From Chthoniobacterales bacterium (lineage in GTDB: Bacteria > Verrucomicrobiota > Verrucomicrobiia > Chthoniobacterales > JAFAMB01): a DNA stretch of 43,613 nt. Positions 2,231-16,619 of this stretch are shown here, in pieces. The translations under genes were made by a program, and so were the position numbers. The stretch's first letter is position 1. Every line of letters starts with the position of its first letter. The DNA is taken from NCBI GenBank assembly GCA_035483355.1, contig DATHPZ010000088.1, positions 1 through 43,613 of the forward strand, given 5' to 3'. The notes beneath the pieces are model-generated. The model ran no database searches and had not been told where the DNA came from. It saw only the letters and a program-made list of their open reading frames with translations.

Positions 2231-2505
2231 AGTGTCCTGTCGCCGAAATAACATGCCTTTTGCCGTAGGTCAGTTGGCTGTTTTTCAAGGCGCGAGCGAT
2301 GCGCCCATATCTGAGTCATACGGGTCGAGCGAGCAACGCGTAAAAACGGCCAACCGGCCACGGCCCAGTGGGTTGCGATGAAAATGGGCCGGCGGCTGCG
2401 TTGCTCGTCGGTCACGTATCGATTCAGATATGCTCCCTTCTCGCGCCTTGCCGGCGGCCCATTTTGATCGCAACAAAAGGCATGTTATTTCGGCGACAGA
2501 ACACT
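2231..2505. repeat. Structured palindromic intergenic element, copy A (long hairpin; possibly an ncRNA or a MITE/ERIC-like element)
   Basis: The 31-nt terminal arms 2231-2261 and 2475-2505 are complementary at 30/31 positions. Inner helices are 2286-2296/2440-2450, 2306-2314/2424-2432 and 2330-2339/2398-2407. It is collinear with copy B at 13886-14154. Confidence 0.75.
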
Positions 2506-2507
2506 AG

Positions 2508-5390
2508 TCAACTTGCGGGCTCCATCCCGTGAGACAACTCTTCTGCCTCCACGGGGACGCAGCTGCAGAAAAGGTTTCTGTCGCCATAGACATTGTCTAT
2601 TCGGCCGACGACAGGCCAGAATTTGTGTTCTCGCGTCCATGGCGCCGGGTAAGCTGCAGATTCCCGCGAATAGCTTCGATCCCAGCTGTCAGCTAGAAGA
2701 TCTTGCGCCGTATGGGGCGACCGTTTGAGGACGTTATCTTCGCGGTCGGCTTCTCCGGTTTCGATGGCTCGAATTTCACCGTAGATCGAAATCATGGCAT
2801 CACAGAAACGATCTAGTTCAGCCTTCGATTCGCTCTCGGTCGGTTCAATCATCATTGTTCCAGGAACCGGCCAGGACATGGTCGGCGCATGGAACCCGTA
2901 GTCCATGAGACGCTTGGCAACATCTTCGACCTCAATTCCGGCAGACTTTTTGAACTGCCGAAGATCGATGATGCACTCGTGGGCAACACACCCGTTTTTT
3001 CCTTTGTATAAAATGGGGAAAAATGGCGCTAACCGGCTGGCAACATAGTTCGCGTTCGCGATCGCTACTTTGGTCGCGTGCCGCAATCCTTCCGGACCCA
3101 TGAGGCGAAGATAAATCCAGGAGATGCCCAGGATACTGGCGCTACCATAGGGAGCTGCGGCAATTGGGCCGATGCCTGATTTCCGGCCGAAGTCCACGAA
3201 AGGATGGCCCGGCAAATAGGGAGCCAGGTGAGCTTTCACTCCGATCGGGCCAACTCCCGGGCCTCCACCGCCGTGCGGTATGCAAAATGTCTTGTGCAAA
3301 TTCAGATGACACACGTCCGCTCCGAAGTCGGCTGGACGGCAGAGCCCCACCAGAGCGTTCATATTCGCGCCATCCATATAAACCTGCCCGCCGTGCTGAT
3401 GGACGATTTCACAAATCTCCGTGATTCCCTCTTCAAATACGCCGTGGGTTGAAGGATAGGTCACCATCAAGGCGCCGAGTCTTTCCGAATGCTGCTCCGC
3501 TCTTTTCCTGAGATCACCGAGATCGATATTCCCCTGGGCGTCACATTGCACCGGGACCACCTGGAATCCAGCCATTGCGGCCGAGGCGGGATTGGTCCCG
3601 TGAGCCGAAGTTGGAATCAAGCACACGTTTCTCTGAGTTTGTCTCCGTTCACGATGATATTCCCGAATTACCAACAGACCTGCGTATTCGCCCTGCGACC
3701 CGGCATTGGGTTGGACAGTCACCTCAGCGAACCCCGTAATGGCAGCCAGCCAACTCTCCAGCTCAAGGATCAGCTGTCGATACCCGGCCGTTTGAGCGGC
3801 AGGCGCAAACGGATGGATCTGGCCGAGTTCCGCCCAGGTGACGGGGAGCATCTCCGCCGCGGCATTCAGTTTCATCGTGCAGGATCCCAGCGGGATCATG
3901 GAAGTCGTCAGTGACAGATCCCTGGACTCGAGCCGATGGAGATAACGCATCAGCCCGGTCTCAGTGTGATGACTATTGAAAACAGGGTGCGTCAGATAAG
4001 GAGACCTGCGAACAAACTCTTGAGGGATATCGCCAACTTCCGCCTCGGAAAGATCCGGAACGAAGTCCGACTTATCATCGGCAAAAAGATTCACCAGAGT
4101 CTGAAGATCCTCTTCGGAAACCGTTTCATCGAGACTGATCCCGATGGAGTCATCATCGAAAATCCGGAAATTGATCAAGGATGCCGCCGCCTTGGTGAGG
4201 ATCGCGTTCCTCCGCTGACCGAGCTTCACCCGGAGGGTATCAAAACGCGGATCGCCTCCGACTTCCAAACCAAGTTTTTCCAAACTGAAGGCCAGCCTTC
4301 CCATCTGCCGTTGGATCCGTTCCGCGATCTGTCTCAAGCGATTTGGGCCATGATAAACGGCGTAAGTCGCAGCAATAACGGCTAATAAAACCTGAGCGGT
4401 ACAGATATTACTCGTCGCTTTATCGCGTCGGATATGTTGCTCACGGGTCTGCAACGCGAGCCGGTAACCGGGACGTCCAGCCGGATCTTTTGAAACCCCG
4501 ACCAACCGCCCCGGCATAAGCCGTTTGAATTGGTCACGCGTGGAAAAGAATGCGGCATGCGGACCGCCGTAACCGAGCGGAACGCCGAATCGCTGCGTCG
4601 TTCCGACACAGATATCTGCCCCAAACTCACCCGGAGGAACAAGGAGCGTCAGGCTCAGAAGATCTGCGGCGACAACAGCGAGCGCCTGACCTTCATGAAG
4701 CCGCTGGATAAAGGTCGTGTAGTTGTAGATGGGTCCGTCGGTCGCAGGATACTGGAGCAACGCTCCAAAAAGTGGTTTCTTGAAATCCCAAGTGCGGTGA
4801 TCTCCAACGATCACTTCGATGCCCAGCGGCTTGGCCCTGGTTTCAACAACGGCGACGGTCTGTGGATGACAGGTTTGCGAAAGAAAAAACGTTCGGACTG
4901 AAGTCTGCTTCCGCAGTGCGAAACACATCGCCATCCCTTCGGCTGCGGCGGTGGATTCATCCAATAACGAGGCATTGGCGATCTCCAACCCTGTCAGATC
5001 GGTCACCATGGTCTGGAAATTCAGTAGAGCCTCGAGGCGTCCTTGTGCGATTTCCGGCTGATAGGGTGTGTATGCCGTGTACCAACCTGGTTTCTCCAGA
5101 ATATTCCGTTGGATCACAGGCGGAGTCACGCAAGCATGATAGCCAAGGCCGATATAGGATTTTGCCACCCGATTTTTGAGAGCAATTTCTCGGAATGTTC
5201 GCAGGACTTCGAACTCGCTATCAGGCTCGGGTAGATTCAGTTCATCATCAGAGCGAATCGCTTCCGGAACCGTGGCGTCGATCAGAGAGTCAAGGGAATG
5301 GTGGCCAACTTGTTGCAGCATCTCCTGCAATTCTTCCTCGCTGGGACCAACGTGCCTCTCAACGAACGACGGAAAGCCCATGTTTGCCAT
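2508..5390 (-). CDS. gcvP: Glycine dehydrogenase (decarboxylating), single-chain P protein of the glycine cleavage system
   Basis: About 960 aa with typical GcvP sequence throughout ([33 protein letters not shown]). I placed the start at ATG 5390 ([13 protein letters not shown]) rather than at the ORF maximum of 5510. Confidence 0.9.
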
Positions 5391-5562
5391 TTTCCTGGAA
5401 AGCTTCCTACTCAGCATCGCGGAACATGGAGCAGAGGAGCGAGGATTACAAGTTGCCGGCGGGCGGAATGAGGATGAGAGGGGCACGAACGCGTTACCGC
5501 CCTGATTCATTCAATCCGCTCCTAACGGTTGCCCAGCGTTGGTTCCTACATATCGTGACGAG

Positions 5563-13397: not shown

Positions 13398-13886
13398 ATG
13401 CCTTCTTTCGACATCGTCTCCGAGGTGGACAAGCAAGAGATTGACAACGCGATCAACCAGGCGAGGAAAGAATTGAGTACGCGGTTCGATTTCAAAGACA
13501 GTAAGGCCACTGTCGAAATGGCCGACCCTGAGCTGATTCAACTCACCGCAGAAGATGGCGGCAAATTAAAGTCCTTGATGGAAATCGTGATCGGAAGACT
13601 CGCGAAGCGGAACATCGATCTCCGTAATGTGGAACGAAAAGATCCGGCGATTTCGCCGCTTGGACACGCGCGTCAGGAAATTCACATCAAGCAGGGGCTG
13701 GACGGCGACAAAGCCAAGGAGATCATCAAAGCGATTAAAGCGCTGGATGCCAAGGTTCAGAGCCAAATCCAGGATCGGCAAATCCGAGTGACAGGCAAAA
13801 AGAGAGACGAACTTCAAGCGGTCATTCAATTCCTGCGGAGCAAGGATTTCGGCGTTGGTCTCGGTTTCAAGAACTTCAGAGACTAG
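13398..13886 (+). CDS. yajQ: YajQ family (UPF0234) nucleotide/cyclic-di-GMP-binding protein
   Basis: 162 aa starting MPSFDIVSEVDKQEIDNAINQ..KEL..RFDFK, the canonical YajQ N-terminus. The longer ORF from 13128 overlaps the GT9 gene and is not credible. Confidence 0.85.
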   Translation: MPSFDIVSEVDKQEIDNAINQARKELSTRFDFKDSKATVEMADPELIQLTAEDGGKLKSLMEIVIGRLAKRNIDLRNVERKDPAISPLGHARQEIHIKQGLDGDKAKEIIKAIKALDAKVQSQIQDRQIRVTGKKRDELQAVIQFLRSKDFGVGLGFKNFRD

Positions 13887-14154
13887 TGCATCGTCTCATA
13901 AGTGGGAGGCATACCGCCGTCGGCGATTTGGCCGATTTTCAAGGCGCGAGCGACGAGCATACTTTGATCCGTGAGGAACGAGCAACGCGGAAAATCGGCC
14001 AAAGCGCCATCGGCCCTCTGGGTTGGCTTGAAAAGGGTCCGTCTGCGTCGTTGCTCGTTCGTTACGGATCGAAGCGGATACGCTCCTCACTCGCGCCTAG
14101 CATCCAGACCCTTTTGAAGCCAACGGTATGCCTCCCACTTATGAGACGATGCAC
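13886..14154. repeat. Structured palindromic intergenic element, copy B (homologue of 2231-2505)
   Basis: The 31-nt arms 13886-13916 and 14124-14154 are complementary at 31/31. Inner helices are 13942-13950/14090-14098 and 13977-13988/14049-14060. Conserved core blocks are shared with copy A in the same order and strand. Confidence 0.75.
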
Positions 14155-14167
14155 GAGTGTCCTGTGA

Positions 14168-14407
14168 TTATCCACCTTGAACCGGCGGCATCAACGAAAT
14201 CAAATCTCCCGCTTTGACCACATAATCTCGCCGGACCCACTCGGTTCCCGCGGCGATCAAAAGATGTTTGTTCCAAACCTCCAGGCTTGGTCTTTGTTGG
14301 AACAGTTTGTGCAGCAAAATCTCGACGGTCGTTCCGTCCGCCAATTCAATCGAGTCCGGTCCCCCTAAACTGCGCAGATGAGCAAAGTATTGGATTTGAA
14401 TCAGCAT
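14168..14407 (-). CDS. moaD: MoaD/ThiS family sulfur-carrier protein
   Basis: 79 aa ending in the diagnostic C-terminal GG (PPVQGG). It overlaps the hpt stop by 7 nt. Confidence 0.75.
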   Translation of the reverse strand: MLIQIQYFAHLRSLGGPDSIELADGTTVEILLHKLFQQRPSLEVWNKHLLIAAGTEWVRRDYVVKAGDLISLMPPVQGG

Positions 14408-14960: not shown

Positions 14961-15596
14961 TCAGCCGGCCCTTTTCGACGTTGCCCCCATGACATTGAAA
15001 GCAGCACGTCGAGCGTACCGGCGAATCAGCATCGTTAAGCGCTGCCGGTTCGTTTTGTCAGTGAATCTGATGCCATTCACGCCGGCGACGCGACGGAGTT
15101 CAGAAAGCGTTCGTGAGCCAATCTCTTTGGTGAATTCTTCATCCAGCAGATGGCCCAAGCGGATAAATTCATGCTGAAGAAGCGCCTTATCTTTGCCTCC
15201 GGATTCCACGTGCGCAACCTGAGCAAACGCCTCATTCAAAAATTCCACCGCTCGATCCTGTTGACCGGCTCCATGGACCAATTCGATGAACTCGCGTTTC
15301 GCCGCAACCAGCTCTTGCGACTTCAGGCGTTTCCCGCAGATTAGTTTTACCCCGTGTTTGAGCAGAGCAATGGTGAGATGTCTTTTCGATGCTGGAGAAC
15401 GAAGCAAGCTTTCGAGCAAGAGCTCCCCGGACTTTCGGCTGGCCAGATGGCTCTCAAACTGTTCCTCAAAACGCTGAAGCTGCAAGGCCAGCTTTCCAGC
15501 CGACCGCCCGAGATTTTCCCCCTCCAATTTGTCGGCGTGTCTGGCCAGCCGTTCTCCGAGTTGCGAAAGCCTGCTTGCGAGATCTGCGTAATTCAT
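14961..15596 (-). CDS. Hypothetical helical protein with HeH/SAP/Rho_N-like motifs; partner of the ParA-like ATPase
   Basis: 211 aa. The start ATG overlaps the ParA-like stop (ATGA). The N-terminus is coiled-coil-like. The C-terminal LSELRRVAGVNGIRFTDKTNRQRLTMLIRR fits the helix-extended-helix pattern. I recognise no family. Confidence 0.6.
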   Translation of the reverse strand: MNYADLASRLSQLGERLARHADKLEGENLGRSAGKLALQLQRFEEQFESHLASRKSGELLLESLLRSPASKRHLTIALLKHGVKLICGKRLKSQELVAAKREFIELVHGAGQQDRAVEFLNEAFAQVAHVESGGKDKALLQHEFIRLGHLLDEEFTKEIGSRTLSELRRVAGVNGIRFTDKTNRQRLTMLIRRYARRAAFNVMGATSKRAG

Positions 15597-16501
15597 TTTT
15601 TGCTCTCAAAGAGGTCAACCAACCGTTGTGTCAGATCAGCATAATCCTGTGCGCCGATGCTGCCCGGCGCGTACAAGATTACCGGCAAGTGCTCGCTCGT
15701 GGATTCGGCGACCCGGACACAATGCCGAATATAAGGTTGGAGCAGGATCGCCTGTTCAGAGAGCATCCCTTCCTGACGGAGCGCGGCCATAGAAAGTTCA
15801 AGCTCATTCACGGCCAACCGAAAAACGTTGCCTGTCTGCCGGTAATGACTAACGATCAGAGCTCCAATATTTGGCTTCCGGCGCCCCGGAAGGTAGGGCG
15901 CGAATTTCTCCCGCATCTCGACGATCTGTTCGGCCAATACCTGGAAACCGGAAAGCGACAAATAGTCGGGCACATAGGGAACAATGCAGGTATCCGAAGA
16001 AAAAATCGCGGCCTTTGTCGTACTGTAGAGGTTCGGTGGACAGTCCAGAAGGACATAGTCGTATTGTTTGAACCGCGTCCCCAGCGCCAAATCCAGAATC
16101 TGATAGATCACCGGGGCACGCAACTCATGAATCCTATCCTCAATCCGCAGCAACTCGACCGATGCGGGCAGCAGATGGAGGCTCGGTAGATCGGTGAATC
16201 CGGTCCAGGTCACCACCCCTTTCACCAACGCCTCATCGAAATTGAAACGAGCCTTCCCTTGCAGCGCATCGTCAAAAATTTGAAAGGTCGAGCGTCGCCC
16301 ACGAAGCACATGATCGCGCCAGCGATCCGGACGCATTAGCCAGACACTTGAATTGGATTGCGGATCGAGATCGACAATCAGCACTCTCTTTTCATGGAGC
16401 TTTGCGAGCGTTGCCCCAATATTGACGACCGTAGCGGTCTTCCCAACGCCACCTTTGAAATTGATGAATGCGAGGACCTTGGAACTCATCGATTGCCGCA
16501 T
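15593..16501 (-). CDS. ParA/Soj/MinD-family P-loop ATPase (orphan ParA-like)
   Basis: It has the deviant Walker A, FKGGVGKTATVVN, followed by VLIVDLDPQSN and DYVLLDCPP. The start is probably ATG 16501 or 16489 rather than the ORF maximum of 16606. Confidence 0.85.
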   Translation of the reverse strand: MRQSMSSKVLAFINFKGGVGKTATVVNIGATLAKLHEKRVLIVDLDPQSNSSVWLMRPDRWRDHVLRGRRSTFQIFDDALQGKARFNFDEALVKGVVTWTGFTDLPSLHLLPASVELLRIEDRIHELRAPVIYQILDLALGTRFKQYDYVLLDCPPNLYSTTKAAIFSSDTCIVPYVPDYLSLSGFQVLAEQIVEMREKFAPYLPGRRKPNIGALIVSHYRQTGNVFRLAVNELELSMAALRQEGMLSEQAILLQPYIRHCVRVAESTSEHLPVILYAPGSIGAQDYADLTQRLVDLFESKK

Positions 16502-16583
16502 TCCATAACGGGTGAAAGCGACGTTCTGATCAAGTTCTTTTCTTGCCAATGATCCCTGGTGTTGGTGACTTTCAGGGATTGTC

Positions 16584-16605
16584 TGTCCTGTCCCGGGACA
16601 GGACA
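16584..16605. repeat. Perfect 22-bp palindrome TGTCCTGTCCCGGGACAGGACA in the divergent parA-like/TPR intergenic region (candidate operator or REP-like hairpin)
   Basis: The perfect palindrome can be read directly. On the minus strand it contains AGTGTCCTGTCCC, the same motif that forms the outer end of element A. Confidence 0.6.
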
Positions 16606-16619
16606 CTAGCTATAACTTT

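Follow-up and report, generated by a model that had tools for sequence, protein, structure and literature searches.

The DNA analyzed here (the window) is a 43,613-nucleotide stretch of a Chthoniobacterales bacterium (contig DATHPZ010000088.1), and it contains two related structured elements on the + strand, copy B (positions 13886-14154; 269 bp, GTG...CAC) and copy A (2232-2504; 273 bp). We conclude, with a probability of roughly 0.8, that B is an IS630-type miniature inverted-repeat transposable element (MITE) of a large soil Verrucomicrobiota family, with two structured units and a fold that is maintained in the master copies. B is a non-autonomous element of the lineage with the tip GTGCATCGTCTC, and A belongs to the lineage with the tip GTGTCCTGTCGC. 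Judged by sequence, the short element is a MITE of the IS630/Tc1-mariner kind.

A pattern made from two conserved blocks of the core was searched against a collection of species-representative genomes. It matched at least 119 genome loci, nearly all in metagenome-assembled genomes (MAGs) of soil Verrucomicrobiota, and an arm-based scan of metagenomes yielded at least 120 loci (individual loci are given below as L numbers). Thus A and B, the two copies described in an earlier reading of the window (the sequence-only reading), are not the sole copies. At least 61 full-length copies were present in soil Verrucomicrobiota MAGs, and 61 were aligned. The first G and the last C of the element were invariant in these 61 copies, and TA lay just outside either end. 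No conserved open frame was found across the 61 copies, and coding potential was rejected. The size of A and B (269-273 bp, non-coding) was below the 600 bp allowed for a MITE. Both possessed terminal inverted repeats (TIRs) with arms of 31-38 nt, and matching arms were present in 59 of the 61 copies.

The base outside the TA was C in 46, T in 13 and G in 2 copies on the left, and G in 53, A in 5, T in 2 and C in 1 on the right. When the left outer base was T, the corresponding right base was C in 13 of 13 copies; when the right outer base was not G, the corresponding left base was G in 8 of 8. Altogether, the left outer base disagreed with its counterpart on the right in 15 copies, and the right with its counterpart on the left in 8. 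Because the outer bases vary and disagree, the duplication is the 2-bp TA within a YTAR target (mostly CTAG) and not a 4-bp CTAG. Note that IS630-family elements insert only at TA, which they duplicate (PMC2170065). Further, the copies were dispersed, and comparison of filled with empty sites revealed empty paralogous sites with a single TA (L031 versus L059; L051, L050 and L044 versus L013).

These boundaries also bear on mobilization by an IS5-group transposase, which would make a 4-bp CTAG duplication and leave TG...CA ends. CTAG is found on both sides of most copies, IS5-group elements make 4-bp CTAG direct repeats (PMC9241763), and related elements in Terriglobia have 3-bp TTA/TAA duplications. 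However, the disagreement of the outer bases (13 of 13 copies with left T, 8 of 8 copies with a right base other than G) leaves no 4-bp YTAR or CTAG direct repeat, and the recovered partners belong to the IS630 family. An IS5-group origin has a negligible probability, and for this family we regard it as already refuted.

We looked for autonomous partners by scanning the metagenomes for an A-type arm without the core behind it. Six TA-flanked elements of 1148-1201 bp were recovered, all with the identical tip GTGTCCTGTCCC and each with one open reading frame (ORF) of 364-379 aa. The ORF of the partner in L203 matched the IS630 family transposase (NCBIfam NF033545) with 275.8 bits (curated cut-off 100; E 4.8e-82), and the partner ORFs of L203 and L212 both possessed Pfam DDE_3 plus helix-turn-helix domains. 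The inverted repeats of the six partners agreed over 12-21 nt only and were perfect only over 12 nt. Past the 12 nt, four of the six agreed in an NN+AAATA stretch, whereas agreement stopped after 12-13 nt in L203 and L186. The MITE arms are equal to the left inverted repeat (IRL) of the partner over approximately 21 nt, followed by approximately 10 nt of their own, and the whole is mirrored. For comparison, ISY100 transposase has a footprint of 24 bp, and 30 bp at each end suffices for its transposition (PMC2170065). For the A-type tip, the autonomous partner expected of a MITE thus exists. Together with the duplicated TA and the empty paralogous sites, these partners show that the copies are transposon insertions. 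The sequence-only reading had regarded the conservation of the core with variable ends as the opposite of the pattern of a MITE; this view is contradicted by the TA duplication, the empty sites, the conserved 12-nt tips and the IS630-family partner with the same tip.

Other candidate partners were rejected. Truncated left halves in L045, L069 and L064, considered as ends of an autonomous insertion sequence (IS), were neighbored by ordinary genes. TA-flanked inverted repeats 600-3500 bp apart in L068 and L079 enclosed an ABC ATPase and an MFS transporter. The IS630 genes adjoining MITEs in L064 and L034 had different ends. The latter genes lie in other IS630-family elements (L064, 4563-5726; L034, approximately 4333-5460), whose transposases are 51% and 39% identical, respectively, to that of L203. 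The end of the L064 element reads TA|GTGTGTTGAAAGATAAGT..., and a MITE copy was inserted exactly at the right TA of this IS. Several IS630 lineages coexist in the genomes of L064 and L034. As a separate observation, the host sequences of the two insertions with empty sites are themselves repeated, with 80-88% identity within and between Chthoniobacterales MAGs (L013 3290-3720 versus L051, L050 and L044; L059 versus L031 and L086), and represent a further repeat family.

The second part of our conclusion concerns the fold. A repeat search identified a 38-nt terminal inverted repeat in B (13879-13916 / 14124-14161; 95% complementary) and a corresponding one in A (2225-2262 / 2474-2511; 92% complementary), and it also recovered the nested inverted repeats that had been listed in the sequence-only reading. 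In ungapped comparison, the arms of B paired over 34 positions and those of A over 32, with one mismatch apiece, in agreement with the near-perfect pairing noted earlier for each copy. Pairwise alignment of A with B gave 66% identity overall, 47% per arm and 71.5% in the core, with the shared blocks collinear and in the same order as had been described. The arms are indeed about half identical between the copies, except that the outermost 12 nt are conserved: the tips of A (GTGTCCTGTCGC) and B (GTGCATCGTCTC) share 8 of 12 positions. The long-range helix, termed e below, showed five double substitutions between the copies, all of which retained pairing, as had been claimed, and its G-G mismatch was kept in 57 of 61 family members. 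Double substitutions likewise distinguish the two lineages in helix b (13917-13940 / 13990-14013). The folding energy of both copies was far below that of shuffled sequences (z = -13.3 for B and -12.1 for A).

The difference between the arms of A and B did not arise within this genome. It was inherited from two pre-existing lineages, because the nearest relative of B, L048, resides in another MAG (89% identity over the whole element). A and B represent two old lineages that have diverged in every helix, and each helix is still paired.

The same pattern extended to the whole family. The arms of the 61 copies fell into approximately 10 discrete types, each of which paired with itself. Their tips formed the classes GTGTCCTGTCCC, GTGYACCGTCTC and GTGCATCGTCTC, each followed by NN and A(A/T)(A/G)T. 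A belonged to the largest arm type (20 of 61 copies) and B to a rare one, of which L048 was the sole other member. Identity of the 12-nt tip was 74-75% between arm types and 92-93% within them; the corresponding values were 48-50% and 86% for the inner arm, and 88% and 92% for the core. Thus, pairing rather than sequence has been retained family-wide, as the sequence-only reading proposed from two copies: types that are 48-50% identical in the inner arm each pair. We counted 54 compensated double changes in the arms. Mismatches of an arm with its own partner compared with those against the partner in other copies of its type amounted to 4.8 versus 12.8% (largest type), 8.3 versus 10.1%, 6.8 versus 9.8% and 1.1 versus 5.7%, a comparison that is confounded by shared descent of sub-lineages, which itself has the look of concerted change. 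Compensation was still seen in sub-lineages that differ only at arm positions 22-31. The 18 metagenome copies, which were selected by their TIRs, were near-identical.

One explanation of these patterns is that the arms match only through shared transposase binding, that the arm types co-evolved with different IS630 transposases and that pairing is irrelevant. For mariner, transposition improves when the better end is present twice. The division of the tips into classes, each followed by the same NN and A(A/T)(A/G)T box, is consistent with this explanation, as is the finding that the same metagenomes and MAGs contain several diverged IS630 transposases (39-73% identical). Further, an IS630-family transposase protects approximately 24 bp per end (PMC2170065). 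However, the repeats of the cognate IS agree over 12-21 nt, so that 31-33 mirrored bases are not needed. Helices b and e covary likewise outside the ends, and compensation persists in the sub-lineages that differ only at arm positions 22-31. Since stems b and e covary outside the transposon ends and the partner repeats are short, matching transposase-binding sites are insufficient as an explanation, and we consider it unlikely that binding alone accounts for the pairing. Rather, pairing itself appears to be maintained, because the arms are mirrored over 31-33 nt compared with 12-21 nt in the partners and because helices that are not part of the TIRs covary. Pairing would then be maintained in one of two ways: a folded strand is under selection, or mismatches are corrected by intrastrand templating. 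These are the two explanations that had been offered at the outset, selection on a hairpin and templated repair within the element, and both are still live.

The second of them can be taken further, such that the paired changes are a mutational by-product and the fold has no function. The nascent strand could fold back and use its opposite arm as template (template switching), or mismatch repair could act on an extruded hairpin; either would turn a mismatch into a perfect pair. Template switching at quasi-palindromes is an established mutational mechanism. Within types, arm mismatches were far fewer than the summed divergence from the consensus (0.048 versus 0.168 in the largest type and 0.011 versus 0.097 in another), and the whole element is a near-continuous hairpin. 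Collapsed derivatives consisting of arms only are common, as palindrome instability predicts, and both MITE arms copy one IS end (IRL), as if mirrored. In contrast, a by-product leaves unexplained why the ladder strands described below are invariant across phyla as the stems turn over. The G-G mismatch in helix e (57 of 61) and tandem G.A pairs remain uncorrected, many copies retain 2-5 uncorrected arm mismatches, and the arms are more than 200 nt apart, which is far beyond documented template-switch events. We therefore regard a pure by-product as conceivable, with the balance of evidence against it.

The core consists of blocks in the order a b c d b' e d' c' e' a', and it can adopt two folds, a rod (a-a', c-c', d-d') and a three-way junction (a-a', b-b', e-e'). 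For B, the calculated energies of rod and junction were -159.9 and -150.6 kcal/mol with RNA parameters, and -88.4 and -92.4 kcal/mol with DNA parameters. The two folds of B are thus predicted to be nearly isoenergetic, and both are predicted to be stable with DNA parameters.

The core is built of two inverted copies of an approximately 104-nt unit. Each unit combines a stem that covaries, a ladder of invariant G.A mismatches and an apical hairpin that likewise covaries. The complementarity of c/d to d'/c' in the rod exists because the core consists of two inverted copies of the unit, and the central CCC-NNN-GGG hairpin because both units have conserved 3' tails. In B, unit 1 occupies 13914-14015 (+ strand), with stem b/b' formed by 13917-13940 and 13990-14013; its invariant strands are CAAGGCGCGAGCGA (13940-13953) and GAGCAACGCG (13980-13989), with the apical hairpin between them. 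The mini hairpin CCC-TCT-GGG (14014-14022, + strand) is derived from the 3' tails of both units. Unit 2 occupies 14021-14126 (- strand), and its stem e/e' is formed by 14023-14039 with 14107-14123, with the conserved G-G mismatch inside. The units of A are located at 2260-2366 (+) and 2371-2476 (-).

The core-pattern search also recovered relatives of 265-300 bp whose arms and b and e sequences were wholly different. Relatives in Terriglobia (L010, L066, L082 and L095, from one MAG) had GGGCCTGTCAAG... ends and 3-bp TTA/TAA duplications, which, in this one MAG, hints at a different transposase family. Those in Burkholderiales, Lautropia and Steroidobacteraceae had TA|GGGCCTGTTAACGC ends, and those in Nevskia had TA|GGGAGCCTCTGAA ends. 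Another verrucomicrobial element type was present among the relatives, and shorter single-hairpin forms were found in Myxococcales, Chloroflexota and others. Other loci with the unit and unrelated ends were L076, L093, L033 and L119; L040, L078 and L090; L058; L077; and L071, L073, L067 and L088. The hosts of the unit thus include Verrucomicrobiota, Acidobacteriota, Beta- and Gammaproteobacteria, Chloroflexota and Myxococcota. Cultured carriers among the matches were Vogesella amnigena KCTC 42195 and 'Klebsiella sp.' WOUb02.

All relatives shared 5'-CAAGGCGCGAGCGA-(variable hairpin)-GAGCGAGCAACGCGG-3' inside a long stem. In folds predicted from single sequences, these strands form a ladder in which G-C pairs and 2x2 loops alternate; two of the loops consist of tandem G.A/A.G mismatches, in a CGAG context. 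In an alignment of 16 representative units, RNAalifold predicted 29 pairs, 23 of which showed double-sided changes. Of the cells of this alignment, 87.7% were paired, compared with 61.5% in shuffles, and the covariation score was 0.65, compared with 0.19 in shuffles (0 of 500 as high) and 0.10-0.19 when partners were slid. A covariance model was built from the 16-representative alignment. It detected the second unit on the minus strand at 14021-14126 in B (59.1 bits, E 1.8e-14) and at 2371-2476 in A (58.3 bits), neither of which was in the training set. Further, in elements from Nevskia, Burkholderiales, Terriglobia and others, it placed an inverted second unit next to the first. Both units of L090 (1693-1902, Nevskia) were on the same strand, and in its relatives L040 and L078 they were inverted; recombination between the two halves of stem e/e' would produce such an arrangement by inverting the segment inside the stem.

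A search of Rfam 15 at the gathering thresholds gave no matches in the window; at E <= 10, the element itself had only three chance-level hits below 11 bits, and no Rfam match overlapped the related elements in 14 loci. B and two proteobacterial relatives had no BLAST match in 72,556 plasmids, and the core motif and two TIR patterns were absent from the viral contigs scanned. The literature searched contained no description of this element family; the matches were primers or unrelated papers. A more speculative reading, less likely than not, is that the approximately 104-nt unit is an undescribed functional nucleic-acid module. Such a module, long kept and usually present as an inverted pair in MITEs with unrelated ends (TA, possibly TWA duplications), might be needed as a folded strand of DNA or RNA for spread, e.g., because it pre-synapses the ends or recruits a conserved factor of host or transposase origin.

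We examined whether the fold acts as DNA or RNA. The distance between the invariant strands varies (approximately 24 to more than 47 nt), and a hairpin always fills it; therefore, the functional form is a folded single strand and not a B-form duplex. The orientation of the element was the same as or opposite to that of the upstream gene in 25 versus 20 cases, and of the downstream gene in 21 versus 25 (crude ORF calling), indicating no bias. G.T and A.C mismatches were about equally frequent: approximately 51 versus 43 in the arms (hand tally), and 43 versus 33 in stem b across the representatives. No stem-plus-T-run terminator was found inside B, and copy A possessed weak terminator-like sites only, at background frequency. 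The constraint acts on lineages that are still transposing, a DNA process, which tends to favor DNA. Taken together, these indirect tests of the sequences lean toward DNA or are neutral.

It had been suggested that B is a bidirectional terminator or insulator in the convergent gap, and the element could in principle be primarily a structured RNA, either a stable species of approximately 270 nt or such a terminator or insulator, with selection at the RNA level. The very low folding energy and the strong covariation are in line with an RNA, as are the tandem G.A ladder and the triloop hairpins, features often met in RNA. Co-transcription is expected for the many copies that directly follow a stop codon. 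A role of the unit itself as RNA is conceivable; with two inverted units, transcription of either strand would yield one sense copy. However, the duplicated TA, the empty paralogous sites and the partner of the IS630 family show that copies arise by transposition. Neither an orientation bias with respect to flanking genes nor an excess of G.U over A.C mismatches was seen, B lacks a stem followed by a U-run, and no Rfam family matched even at E <= 10. An intrinsic bidirectional terminator, which would require a G+C-rich stem-loop followed by a T/U run on both strands, was likewise rejected. The terminator or insulator suggestion is thus not borne out, and a primarily RNA-level role of the element is quite improbable.

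For the MITE with a maintained fold, we propose the following mechanism. IS630/Tc1-mariner-family DDE transposases would mobilize the element in trans, probably by recognizing the 12-nt tip and the short A-rich box. The element would be cut and pasted into the TA inside YTAR (mostly CTAG), with duplication of the TA. The replicating (master) copies may have to fold as a single strand, which would account for the retained pairing. The fold is most likely a DNA cruciform or hairpin, in which the arms would pair as the stem at the base and each unit would form a branch; it would set both tips of the 270-bp element side by side or otherwise favor mobilization. Intrastrand templated correction of the quasi-palindrome probably contributes to the concerted pattern.

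Several observations weigh against this proposal or limit it. No transposase gene was found in the window. The partner is known for the A-type tip only; no autonomous IS with the B-type tip GTGCATCGTCTC was recovered, and no search was aimed at it. Arm mismatches, 2-5 in number, are common in single copies. Two or three arm mismatches are even fixed in some lineages that are still spreading (three in one sub-lineage), so that perfect pairing is not obligatory. In L015 (58-346) and L031 (157-463), the left and right arms are of different types and do not pair; either recombination or, in short-read MAGs, chimeric assembly through the conserved core may have produced these two. The five ladder pairs hardly varied and three were invariant, but an exact-match pattern on the invariant strands had been used to select the representatives; this invariance is thus partly by construction, whereas its contrast with the turnover of the stems is not. 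Finally, cleavage by Tc1/mariner/IS630 transposases needs no hairpin intermediate (PMC2170065), and the folded-strand step is therefore conjectural.

The placement of B next to stop codons follows from the target. Considering ORFs of at least 100 aa, the element ended exactly on a TAG stop at 22 ends in 20 of 61 copies, in both orientations. Because the element starts with G, its insertion into the TA of a TAG stop rebuilds the stop, and the insertion survives. The left TA of B (13884-13885) together with G13886 makes the TAG stop (13884-13886) of the upstream DUF520/YajQ ORF. The stop of the convergent ThiS/MoaD-family ORF downstream lies at 14168-14170, 13 nt past the element; the earlier statement that B begins on the last base of the yajQ stop and ends 13 nt before the moaD stop is thus accurate. 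In copy A, the right TA-G lies directly against the TGA stop of gcvP (distance -3). We attribute the position of B at yajQ to the CTAG target preference and the survival of stop-rebuilding insertions. A regulatory explanation for B filling the gap at the stop codon is unnecessary. As to whether copies always abut stop codons, a question raised by the sequence-only reading, 20 of 61 did so exactly on TAG. Further, each insertion recreates CTAG at both borders, so that neighboring or nested copies are expected; examples are the remnant at 14157-14167 beside B and the insertions in L057, L040 and L064.

Among known systems, MITEs of the IS630/Tc1-mariner group, e.g., RUP of Streptococcus pneumoniae with its partner IS630-Spn1 and the eukaryotic Stowaway elements, resemble the present family as small non-coding elements with TIRs and a TA duplication. 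They share the multi-copy and mostly intergenic distribution, the IS630-family DDE partner with common ends and the long hairpin of the whole element. In contrast to such MITEs, the arms here are mirrored well beyond the inverted repeats of the partner, conservation is higher in the interior than in the inner arms (88% versus 48-50% between types), and the interior is made of inverted structured units that are found with unrelated ends in other phyla.

REPINs (PMC3116915) are like this element in having two inverted units, compensatory changes in hairpins and two folds (a long hairpin and a 'clover'), and the folded doublet of REPINs has been argued to be the replicating entity (PMC3116915). 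The REPIN is the closest precedent for a folded inverted doublet as a replicating unit. However, REPINs are approximately 100 bp in size, consist of repetitive extragenic palindromic (REP) sequences, which are palindromes of 20-40 bp tagged with GTAG/CGTC, and make no TA duplication. They depend on a single-copy RAYT, an HUH/Y1 tyrosine transposase acting on single-stranded DNA, unlike the DDE-type ends and IS630 partner found here. The Correia elements (NEMIS/CREE) of Neisseria are TA-flanked MITEs with inverted repeats of approximately 26 bp and functional internal motifs, and they too are inserted near genes, with hairpins that are co-transcribed. In contrast to the present family, they are found in Neisseria only, have conserved arm sequences and an internal IHF site, and possess neither a two-unit structured core nor a cross-phylum module. 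HEARO and omega-RNA repeats resemble the unit as structured modules with covarying stems and invariant loops that are borne by mobile elements in several phyla. However, they are strand-specific and adjoin the nuclease gene that they serve (IscB/TnpB), whereas the unit described here has no accompanying protein gene, no strand bias and no match to an Rfam model.

Further candidates were rejected. A REP/REPIN-RAYT system does not agree with the TA duplication, the DDE-type tips and the IS630 transposase partner. The signature sequences of an integron attC or Xer site and those of the hammerhead, twister, pistol and hatchet ribozymes were absent by eye, and neither class had an Rfam match. A sigma-54 promoter reading of GGCGGCTGCGTTGCT in d' was dismissed, as the GG-N10-GC spacing is lost in the proteobacterial relatives.

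The element is thus known in kind, namely a MITE. What is new is the mirroring of the arms beyond the transposase site and the deeply conserved, cross-phylum paired units, for which neither Rfam nor the plasmid collection nor the literature searched had a counterpart. For the window, this means that two intergenic 'structured' segments are transposon insertions and not genes or regulators, and that their position at stop codons follows from target preference. With its many members, the family offers a natural data set on a DDE-type MITE whose two arms and two internal stems change in concert, although its cognate transposase needs no more than 12-21 nt. It makes testable whether the success of a MITE depends on the formation of a hairpin or cruciform, and complete transposase genes are available for synthesis. 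Similar repeats to the approximately 104-nt module with its invariant non-canonical pairs earlier proved to be functional RNAs of mobile elements. If the unit is needed as a folded strand for spread, it would define a new class of structure-dependent MITE.

The remaining parts of B and A are as follows. The left arm of B (13886-13916, + strand) comprises the tip at 13886-13897 (GTGCATCGTCTC) and an inner lineage-specific part at 13898-13916. The right arm (14124-14154, + strand) ends in the tip at 14143-14154 (GAGACGATGCAC), and the right target copy (14155-14156) has decayed from TA to GA. The adjoining remnant at 14157-14167 (+ strand), an 11-nt GTGTCCTGTGA read by eye, resembles an A-type tip and abuts the ThiS/MoaD stop. 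Copy A is flanked by TA at 2230-2231 and 2505-2506, with the stop of gcvP (2508-2510) on one side and the start of lptF/G (2189) on the other.

Variant and reduced forms of the family were also observed. In about a quarter of the copies, an extra sequence of approximately 18 nt, CCGCCAGTCCGGCTCGGA, which forms a small hairpin, replaced part of block c' of unit 2 (alignment columns 233-267; e.g., L087, L029, L035, L068, L092, L039, L055, L064, L105, L004, L025, L098 and L020), and it was doubled in L108. Because this insert occurs with several arm types, arms and core variants have been shuffled relative to each other. Arms-only TA-flanked elements of 45-60 bp were common in the metagenomes (L151, L120, L220, L161, L183, L185 and L193). 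Within the window, an apparent collapsed or deleted derivative of the family is located at 16584-16609; it reads TGTCCTGTCCC|GGGACAGGACA followed by CTAG and is a 22-bp palindrome of two A-type tips only. This palindrome is just upstream of a ParA/MinD-like gene (15593-16606, minus strand). Further, a lone right tip, GGGGACAGGACAC followed by CA, without an adjoining arm or core, is present at 303-316. A chance match of a 13-mer in 43 kb is unlikely, and this solitary tip is probably a further remnant of the family.

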